Shown here: positions 14,353-16,065 of the stretch, one piece after another
Layout of the letters: each line of letters begins with the position of its first letter
How positions within the stretch are numbered: position 1 is the first letter of the stretch
Assembly: GCA_031279555.1 (NCBI GenBank)
Contig: JAITIK010000005.1
Coordinates: 1,464 to 65,463, forward strand
Reading direction: 5' to 3'
Origin: Treponema sp.
GTDB taxonomy: Bacteria > Spirochaetota > Spirochaetia > Treponematales > Breznakiellaceae
Length of the DNA: 64,000 nucleotides
Program-made: the position numbers and the translations under genes
The notes under the pieces: model-generated
The model's input: the letters and a program-made list of their open reading frames with translations, nothing else
The model's database searches: none
What the model was told of the DNA's origin: nothing

Positions 14353-16065
14353 ATGGAATATTTGGATTTTAAGACGGCGCGGTGTAAAGACTGTTTCAAG
14401 TGTTTGCGCGAATGTCCGGTGAAAGCGATAAAATTTGAAAACCGTCAGGCGCAAATCGTTGAGGAGCGTTGCATCCTGTGCGGCACATGTACGAGCGTCT
14501 GCCCGCAAAACGCAAAGAAGGTCAATTCGGAGTTGGCGAAGATCGAAGCGATTTTGGCTGGCGGCGGGCAGGCGATCGCCTCGGTGGCGCCCTCTTTTGC
14601 AAGCAGTTTCGGCGTACAGAGCTTCTCAATGATGCGGCTTGCCATCGCCAAACTTGGATTTGCGTACGCCGAAGAGACCGCTGTTGGCGCGGAGGCGGTG
14701 AGCGCGGCGTACGTCCGCTTGTTGGAGACGCATGAATATAAAAACTTTATCACTTCCGCGTGTCCGGCCATAAACCGCATGATTCAGGCGTATTATCCGG
14801 GAGCGTTGAAATACCTGGCTCCGGTGGACTCCCCCATGACAGCGCATGGAAAACTCTTGAAACAAAGGTTTCCAAACGCGAAGATAGTGTTCATAGGGCC
14901 GTGTATAGCGAAAAAAAGAGAAGCTGCGGAGAGCGGAATCATAGACGCGGTTTTGACCTTTGAGGAATTGAGCCAGCTCTTTGCCAATAGAAACATAGCG
15001 TTGGAACGGGCGGCGGATGTCAATACCGGCGATGGCGGTGAATCTGTAAACCGCGCCAGACGCTATCCCATCAGCAGAGGAATCATCAAGTCGTTCATAA
15101 ACCCTCCAGATGAGTATGAATATGTCGCTGTGGACGGCGTAAAAAGATGTTTTGAGGCGCTTGAAGACATAGAAACGTATTCCGGGCTGTTCATTGAGAT
15201 GAATTGCTGCGAATATGGATGCGTTAACGGTCCGTGCATACTGAAAAACCCGGGCGGCGCAATCAAGGCGAACAAGGAAATACGGGATTATGCCAATAAA
15301 AACGCCGCGAATATGGCGGCGGCGGGAAAAACAGCGGCGCGGAGCCTTGATTTGTTGGTGAAGCGCCCGTCGCTCCATCTGCATTTTGCAACGCCGGGAG
15401 AAAGGGACATCCAGTTTATTTTGGCTAAGAGCGGCAAGCTCAAACCCGAAGACGAGCTTAATTGCGGCGCGTGCGGATACTCCACCTGCCGCGAGAAGGC
15501 GCTATCCGTGTTCAACGGTTTGGCCGACATAGAAATGTGCATCCCCTATATGCGCGCCCGCGCCGAATCAATGTCCTATGAGATAATTCAGAACAGCCCC
15601 AACGGCATCATCGTTCTTGACGGGGACTATAAAATACTGGAGTTGAACAACGCGGCCCGCCGGATTCTCGGCATAACCGCCGCGAGCGCGAAGGGCTTGA
15701 ACGCATTTGATTGCTTTAATTGCGGCGACTACCTCATCGCGTGTAGCGAAGGGAAAAGCATACATAAAAAGAACGTGTTTATTGGCGAGACTGGCAAGTA
15801 CGCGGAAATGTCGATTATCCTGTTGCGCGACCATAAAATCATGTTCGGCGTGTATAAAGATATATCGGACAAGGTGGAATTTGACAAAAAACTTGATGAG
15901 GTGAAGAATGAAACCCTTAATACGACAGACGGCGTGATAAAAAAACAAATGCGCGTGGCCCAGGAAATAGCTTCGCTTCTGGGGGAAACCACCGCTGAAA
16001 CAAAGGTGGCTTTGCTCAAACTCAAGAAAACCTTGCAGCGCGAGCATGAGACAGAGGACGCCTAG
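14353..16065 (+). CDS. hydS: Sensory-type [FeFe]-hydrogenase-like protein with PAS domain (HydS / HfsB-like, group C)
   Basis: N-terminal 2x[4Fe-4S] ferredoxin motifs ([24 protein letters not shown]). H-domain motifs are FITSACP, [10 protein letters not shown] and [13 protein letters not shown]. A Cx2Cx4Cx16C motif is present (C371-C396), followed by a PAS-like segment ([30 protein letters not shown]). Confidence 0.85.
   Translation: [570 protein letters not shown]

Follow-up and report, generated by a model that had tools for sequence, protein, structure and literature searches.

A putative phosphatase-linked sensory [FeFe]-hydrogenase, HydS, in a gut Treponema and the conserved hairpin at its C terminus

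Fermenters are believed to use sensory [FeFe]-hydrogenases to change over between the production of H2 and that of ethanol, a choice that shapes the hydrogen economy of gut and rumen and the yields of biofuel. One gene for a putative protein of this kind, hydS (also called hfsB), lies in a 64,000-nucleotide (nt) stretch of DNA from a Treponema metagenome-assembled genome (MAG; assembly GCA_031279555.1, contig JAITIK010000005.1, forward-strand positions 1,464 to 65,463), hereafter the window; the complete rex-adhE-kinase-hfsABCD cluster is thereby found in a gut Treponema. The question that this locus raises is whether the product of hydS senses H2 or turns it over and, if it is a sensor, which part of the protein would carry the signal and to which partner, the interaction partners of the sensory hydrogenase being still to be identified (PMC13104023). 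We consider it likely that HydS is a group C, phosphatase-linked putative H2-sensing hydrogenase acting by the mechanism proposed below. HydS adds nothing new in kind, being typical of a family that is already known and widely distributed, and what the comparison of that family does is direct attention to a specific 30-residue element and to one partner, a PP2C phosphatase.

Domain plan and proton-relay position of HydS

Judged by its sequence, HydS is a typical member of group C (M2f, phosphatase-linked) of the putative sensory [FeFe]-hydrogenases, a subclass described as having two [4Fe-4S] clusters, an H-domain, a Cx2Cx4Cx16C motif, a PAS domain and a replaced relay Cys (PMC8163306, PMC10055695) and for which 'sensory' is still a putative label in the literature (PMC8924675). 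The M2f features found in HydS (Table 1) are the four Cys ligands of the H-cluster (C137, C184, C286 and C290, within the L1, L2 and L3 motifs), the N-terminal clusters, the Cx2Cx4Cx16C motif, the PAS domain and altered proton-transfer residues. The protein begins with MEYLDFK, an N terminus common to homologues, and its F-domain holds CxxCxxCxxxC twice (C11/14/17/21 at residues 11-21 and C40/43/46/50 at residues 40-50), all eight Cys being invariant in three homologue alignments. The four-Cys motif is covered by PF04060, 'putative Fe-S cluster' (residues 369-398, E 6.8e-10), and the PAS match extends over residues 410-506 (E ~8e-7), with PF00989 and PF13188 above their cut-offs; in the AlphaFold2 model (47 aligned sequences, mean predicted local distance difference test score (pLDDT) 83.9) this region forms a five-stranded sheet over residues 418-503, and no conserved cofactor-type residues were seen in the PAS domain. 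A sequence-only reading of the window had placed TSACP, the other H-cluster motifs and a Cx2Cx4Cx16C motif ahead of a PAS domain in this protein, and a canonical motif in the hydrogenase encoded two genes downstream. A scripted motif search returned identical coordinates for TSACP and located GPCIAKK and EMNCCEYGC as well as TSSCCP in the neighbour, and a regular expression and Pfam agreed on the four-Cys motif and its place before the PAS domain, so that what had been read from the sequence holds at every point.

When the HydS model was searched with Foldseek, its first ~390 residues matched DdH, CbA5H, CpI and HydABC at E ~1e-20; the Protein Data Bank (PDB) is without any structure of the M2f sensory subclass. 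The lowest-confidence loop of the model, at residues ~215-230, is a surface loop of the H-domain. At the position that matches this loop, two Treponema orthologues of HydS (P0006 and P0007; locus L035, 4592-6553) carry a tandem array of the heptapeptide GESRPIV, ~85-105 residues in length.

The position that in catalytic enzymes is held by the proton-relay Cys, C299 of CpI, is Ala in HydS. A phmmer search against PDB sequences aligned 'fitsacp' with 'ftsccp' of Desulfovibrio desulfuricans HydA, placing A136 opposite the first Cys of TSCCP, and the top match was the engineered C178A variant 8bj7; a MAFFT alignment with the group A HydA of the same genome (contig C34) gave the same register. The Ala had been expected at the relay position, and both alignments put it there. 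Further residues of the proton pathway and second sphere, in the CpI numbering used in PMC8163306, were mapped through the alignment to the group A HydA. The HydS equivalent of E279 falls within a four-residue deletion; E282, R286 and C299 correspond to A118, L123 and A136; and of these five residues of the proton pathway four are lost, S319 alone being kept, as S160. M353 corresponds to G182 and M497 to N284. As far as alignment can tell, the second-sphere and proton-pathway pattern of HydS is in agreement with the published descriptions of M2f and M2e enzymes (PMC8163306, PMC10055695).

How general this pattern is was judged from a family alignment of 134 full-length representatives with 33-57% identity to HydS. 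Eight Cys, the four H-cluster ligands and the four of the C-terminal motif, are invariant in 134/134 relatives, and the motif features of HydS are therefore not due to chance. Position 136 is far more variable (Ala in 46, Cys in 40, Ser in 33, Thr in six and Pro in two), as is the M497 position (Asn in 36, Leu in 33, Ser in 32 and Met in 18), and the M353 position is Gly in 121 and Ser in 12. The sequence-only reading had treated TSACP as the signature of a sensory-type enzyme: Ala is indeed the commonest state at this position, but with Cys in 40 and Ser in 33 of the 134 it does not define the family. Comparable frequencies have been published for sensory enzymes, in which the relay residue is Ala in ~43% and Cys in ~17% (PMC10055695).

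These data bear on the proposal that HydS is the catalytic subunit of an HfsABCD complex, either a slow or unidirectional H2-evolving enzyme or an uptake enzyme, in which the PAS domain and the C-terminal tail serve assembly only. The first description of the hfs operon indeed presented it as the main hydrogenase for H2 production in Thermoanaerobacterium saccharolyticum (cited in PMC8924675 and PMC11837493), TmHydS is measurably active although its relay position is Ala (PMC10055695), and the close operon linkage with hfsD is conserved. However, when hfsB alone is deleted, hydrogenase activity rises and the phenotype is stronger than that of a deletion of the whole operon, which argues for regulation (PMC5707799), and to this are added the loss of most of the proton pathway in HydS and the signalling nature of its strictly conserved partner, a PP2C phosphatase. 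A purely catalytic role is in our judgement very unlikely, and 'sensor rather than catalyst' is a putative label which HydS takes by analogy with its characterized relatives.

The C-terminal hairpin and the phosphatase gene downstream

The part of HydS that follows the PAS domain had been described from the sequence as a charged helical tail of roughly 70 residues. The helical nature and the approximate length (~66 residues in the AlphaFold2 model) hold, but this is not a generic charged helix, because it contains a conserved core. The model shows a hairpin, with helices at residues 505-543 and 548-564 joined by a GETT turn at 544-547, and the pLDDT drops from 74 to 44 along its length; such low confidence in a monomer model is as expected for an interface element that would require a partner. 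The most conserved 20-residue window of the whole family lies in the tail core (residues 532-551, majority fraction 0.83), followed by that of the four-Cys motif (residues 367-386, 0.81), and the windows of the H-cluster motifs score lower than both, at 0.55-0.64. By region, the majority fraction is 0.73 for the tail core (526-558), 0.69 for the FeS motif, 0.61 for Fer4, 0.47 for the H-domain, 0.37 for the PAS domain, which is the least conserved folded region, and 0.28 for the linker. On this measure the FeS-PAS-hairpin end, and not the TSACP motif, is the most constrained part of the predicted HydS family. The conserved residues of the tail profile can be read as a heptad stripe (L522, A525, I529, Q532, A536, I539 and L543, flanked by T521, V528, V535 and L542), a pattern that suits a helical bundle and not a charged helix exposed to solvent. 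A Pfam search of the tail returned no family, with sub-threshold noise only (RICH, TBCA), and no mention of this element was found in the literature searched on sensory [FeFe]-hydrogenases.

The gene order around hydS points in the same direction as the tail. A pattern scan of one genome per species, for which [QH][EQ]IA[SG]LLGE, a sequence lying in the tail, was picked automatically as the best family pattern, gave at least 598 matches, 589 of which encode a HydS relative, and synteny was counted in the best 80 of these at least 598 pattern-matched loci. The 80 loci span Clostridia, Bacteroidales, Erysipelotrichaceae, Desulfitobacterium and Treponema. The hfsA gene is directly upstream of hydS in 79/80 and the PP2C gene directly downstream in 78/80, the contigs of the remaining two ending there; the PP2C proteins at related loci align end to end (381-389 residues). 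HfsD is encoded in 80/80, usually after the PP2C gene, and the kinase in 41/80, AdhE in 35/80 and Rex in 30/80. Because HfsA, PP2C and HfsD are present at almost every locus, we take the core unit to be HfsA-HydS-HfsC(-HfsD). The kinase gene, where present, lies just upstream of hfsA in most of its arrangements, including that of the window, and rex-adhE-kinase stands ahead of the hfs operon in about a third of related loci. Two Clostridia loci (L028 and L067) have the order rex-hfsA-hydS-PP2C-hfsD-adhE-kinase, with adhE downstream of hfsD, and since the kinase gene has there moved along with adhE this hints that the two are tied. Three loci (L041, L044 and L061) have the kinase without adhE.

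That the core of the tail is the most conserved part of the protein and that the PP2C gene directly follows hydS makes the idea of the tail as a phosphatase-docking surface better motivated, and plausible; the adjacency of the two genes fits such docking without proving it. We put forward more tentatively, as a possibility that may well turn out to be wrong, that the hairpin is the true output element, a DHp-like bundle in a HydS dimer that docks and gates HfsC, and that HfsA, FeS-PAS-hairpin and HfsC together make up a portable redox-to-Ser/Thr-phosphatase cassette for which the H-domain is one of several possible inputs. We infer the label 'DHp-like' from a histidine-kinase (HK)-fused paralogue encoded on contig C2 of the same genome, in which the segment after the PAS domain runs into a kinase-like C terminus in place of the tail. 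Short tail-bearing proteins of 326-497 residues were considered as forms without an H-domain; they seem to be truncated or chimeric gene predictions and were not used as evidence.

The H-domain being less conserved than the FeS-PAS-tail part, it may be asked whether HydS senses H2 at all. The same FeS-PAS-hairpin-PP2C output could instead report cellular redox state, through reduced ferredoxin or HfsA and, indirectly, NADH. The small [2Fe-2S] protein encoded directly upstream in 79/80 loci is in favour of this, as is the description of HfsB as possibly responsive to redox potential (PMC11837493). It is harder to reconcile with the retention of every H-cluster ligand in HydS, these being invariant in 134/134 relatives, with the presence of hydE and hydG in the genome, and with regulation in Ruminococcus albus, which tracks the H2 level (PMC6776011). 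We regard redox sensing in place of H2 sensing as unlikely.

The conservation of the tail has a further possible reading, in which the Thr residues of GETTAETK are phospho-acceptor sites for the upstream kinase and PP2C, so that HydS would itself be the substrate of the switch. T546 and T550 are nearly invariant and hydS is flanked by kinase and phosphatase genes, yet the Thr are equally conserved at loci without a local kinase, and the loci that do bear one mostly read GETAAETK, without T547. Moreover, T546-x-x-E549 fits an N-capping box of the second helix, which supplies a structural reason for the conservation. With no correlation with the local presence of a kinase, phosphorylation of the tail was set aside as unsupported and is in our view extremely improbable.

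In the mechanism that we favour, that of an H2 sensor linked to a phosphatase, HydS would bind a normal H-cluster, as its four invariant Cys ligands, K187 and the side-by-side hydG and hydE genes on contig C157 (HydE 528 bits, HydG 639 bits) suggest. With its catalytic proton pathway dismantled it would react slowly with H2, as has been shown for TmHydS and TamHydS. The redox or conformational state would then be handed on via the Cx2Cx4Cx16C and PAS domains to the C-terminal hairpin, which would form a DHp-like helical bundle in a HydS dimer and, as synteny and conservation suggest, would control the PP2C phosphatase HfsC. HfsC in turn would oppose a kinase, probably the APH-fold kinase encoded upstream, on a phosphoprotein, and the outcome would be that the expression or activity of HfsD and AdhE is set, so that at high H2 reducing equivalents are diverted from H2 to ethanol. 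Such an H2/ethanol shift has genetic and transcriptional evidence in Thermoanaerobacterium (PMC5707799) and R. albus (PMC6776011) and would hold for Treponema by extension.

A number of points weigh against this mechanism. H2 binding, the control of a phosphatase and the protein contacts of HydS are all features that we infer from sequence and by analogy, and no phospho-substrate could be identified. The kinase is missing from about half of the related loci. About 30% of the aligned relatives keep the relay Cys, and a slow proton pathway is therefore not universal. H2 does not reduce the C-terminal cluster in TamHydS (PMC13104023), which means that the relay may be structural or conformational and not redox. 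No HydF was found above the cut-off in the MAG, which is 92.9% complete and in 207 contigs. Finally, hydS and hfsC are separated in the window by a spacer of 212 nt (16066-16277), as against ~110 nt in a congener (L090), 8 nt in another Treponema (L035) and 10-35 nt in most other loci, and this unusual spacer could uncouple the expression of the two genes. The extra DNA in the spacer is lineage-specific.

Neighbouring genes, family spread and the rest of the genome

The features of the cluster are collected in Table 1.

Table 1. Genes of the hydS cluster and features of HydS in the window (positions in nt unless marked as amino acid residues, aa)
Feature	Position	Strand	Evidence or description
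rex	9946-10599	+	Pfam Put_DNA-bind_N and CoA_binding
adhE	10596-13205	+	Pfam Aldedh and Fe-ADH
APH/RIO-fold protein-kinase-like gene, candidate partner kinase	13202-13966	+	PF01636 E 1.7e-13; RIO1 and Pkinase matches
hfsA, 80-aa thioredoxin-like [2Fe-2S] protein (NuoE/HoxE-like)	13985-14227	+	PF01257 E 8e-7
hydS/hfsB	14353-16065	+	Open reading frame, 570 aa; group C (M2f) putative sensory [FeFe]-hydrogenase
F-domain of HydS, two ferredoxin-type [4Fe-4S] motifs	14374-14514	+	Pfam Fer4 family matches, aa 8-54
H-domain of HydS, aa 74-294	14572-15234	+	Fe_hyd_lg_C, E 5.5e-47
FITSACP, aa 132-138	14746-14766	+	Scripted motif search; TSACP at 14752-14766
GPCIAKK	aa 182-188	+	Scripted motif search
EMNCCEYGC	aa 282-290	+	Scripted motif search
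C371-x2-C374-x4-C379-x16-C396	15463-15540	+	Regular expression; predicted extra [4Fe-4S] site
PAS domain of HydS, aa ~406-504	15568-15864	+	Pfam PAS, PAS_8 and PAS_9
C-terminal helical hairpin ('tail') of HydS, aa 505-570	15865-16062	+	AlphaFold2; conserved core aa 526-558
hfsC, PP2C/SpoIIE-type Ser/Thr phosphatase (aa 1-228) fused to an unassigned alpha/beta domain (aa 229-386)	16278-17438	+	PF07228
hfsD, group B monomeric [FeFe]-hydrogenase	17431-18873	+	TIGR04105, 558.8 bits against a cut-off of 450; TSSCCP at aa 277

The candidate partner of HydS, HfsC, aligns end to end with its orthologues from the ATG at 16278, among which the metal-binding Asp motifs (CGD, DGLGSG, SDG and GDDTT) do not vary. 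The AlphaFold2 model of HfsC (pLDDT 88) gave SpoIIE (5mqh, E 1.4e-14) as the top Foldseek match, followed by RsbU/RsbX, over the first 228 residues. Its C-terminal domain (residues 226-386 at 16953-17435 of the window) has a conserved alpha/beta fold with invariant GPP, CGGT(T/S)S, DGAS and NxAH, and belongs to no Pfam family in searches of the window sequence and 18 orthologues; with the full HfsC model as the Foldseek query the PP2C domain dominated the results and the C-terminal domain was not identified. A profile search of the PDB gave a weak match to the SIS domain of GmhA (phosphoheptose isomerase; 3trj, E 0.0034), CGGTTS aligning on CGNGSS, and an SIS-like nature of this domain is a weak lead and not an assignment. 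With regard to the regulation of the cluster itself, the Rex operator TTGTGAA-N4-TTCACAA with up to three mismatches gave four matches against 3.4 expected, none of them in the cluster except a poor one near 9779, and a scan of 9600-19200 found one promoter-like site (10/12) before rex and no convincing plus-strand terminator between genes.

Relatives of HydS are numerous. A word-index search found 7,794 among 8,000 scored candidates, the nearest being Treponema MAG proteins (77-89% identity) and the next a very large set at 62-66%, of which the few that are named are Clostridia/Firmicutes MAG proteins. An exhaustive HMMER search of representatives of 50%-identity clusters gave 822 clusters at E <= 1e-30, and the best 150 of the 822 were mostly full-length matches, from residue 1-10 to about 560-566. 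Within the Treponemataceae a HydS homologue is encoded in 49/150 genomes, nearly all at 31-43% identity; the copy of 89% identity is found in one of four sampled congeners and is absent from three congeners that are 92-93% complete. The nearest relatives from other genera are those of Clostridia, at 62-66%, and the rex-adhE-kinase-hfsABCD cluster of this gut Treponema has the appearance of one that was probably acquired horizontally, from Clostridia.

Elsewhere in the genome, a HydABC-type group A hydrogenase is encoded on contig C34, with HydB adjoining. Neither of the two open reading frames that follow hydE on contig C157 (171 and 220 aa) matches an NCBIfam family. Contig C2 (15848-19531) encodes the HK-fused paralogue, a second sensory-type [FeFe]-hydrogenase of at least 804 aa (P0357; it extends beyond the end of locus L004), which has two [4Fe-4S] motifs, an H-domain with the CC pair retained (AQCCP), the Cx2Cx4Cx16C motif and a histidine-kinase-like ATPase end, with an N-box-like LIRNAVQHG near its C terminus. 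The genome may thus carry two different types of putative H2 sensor.

Comparison with known systems

HydS of R. albus 7 and its gene cluster were reportedly described by Zheng et al. in 2014 (J Bacteriol 196:3840), and a study of TmHydS is said to have been made by Chongdar et al. in 2018. In R. albus 7, as here, a PAS-containing sensory-type hydrogenase is clustered on the same strand with a ferredoxin-only hydrogenase, AdhE, a Ser/Thr phosphatase and regulators (PMC6776011). The likeness extends to the presence of rex and kinase genes in the cluster and of a HydABC-type bifurcating hydrogenase elsewhere, so that the same enzyme set is found in the Treponema MAG. The two systems differ in their hosts, R. 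albus being a Firmicute and the bacterium considered here an uncultured Treponema of the gut, and in that the enzyme in the HydA2 position is listed as group A1 in R. albus (PMC6776011), whereas HfsD here scores as group B with TIGR04105. At low H2 the genes of the R. albus cluster are repressed 111-fold (PMC6776011).

The hfsABCD operon of Thermoanaerobacterium saccharolyticum and Thermoanaerobacterium thermosaccharolyticum, the only system of this kind with genetics (PMC5707799, PMC11837493), has the same order of a small Fe-S protein, PAS-hydrogenase, PP2C and hydrogenase. There, however, adhE and rex lie elsewhere in the genome, and here rex-adhE-kinase is joined to the front of the operon. 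Deletion of hfsB leads to higher adhE transcripts, ethanol yield and hydrogenase activity, an effect that requires hfsC and hfsD (PMC5707799).

Among characterized proteins, TmHydS (M2f, group C) resembles the Treponema protein, by its published description, in domain plan, in Ala (A131) at the C299 position and in Gly at the M353 position (PMC10055695), and differs in having Ser at the M497 position, which is Asn in Treponema HydS. Low but measurable activity and unusual H-cluster states have been shown biochemically for TmHydS (PMC10055695). The TamHydS protein of Thermoanaerobacter mathranii shares the N-terminal clusters, an H-domain without the relay Cys and the Cx2Cx4Cx16C motif (PMC8163306, PMC13104023); the sequence-only reading had paired Thermoanaerobacter HydS with a PAS domain, which is inaccurate, since TamHydS belongs to the M2e subclass, group D. 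A more distant parallel is the HoxBC-HoxJ-HoxA system of Cupriavidus necator, in which a crippled hydrogenase signals H2, by way of a PAS-containing partner, to a phosphorylation cascade with hydrogenase genes under its control (PMC5707799). The metal site and the proteins are unrelated to those considered here, and the output is a His-Asp phosphorelay as opposed to the Ser/Thr phosphatase that would serve HydS.

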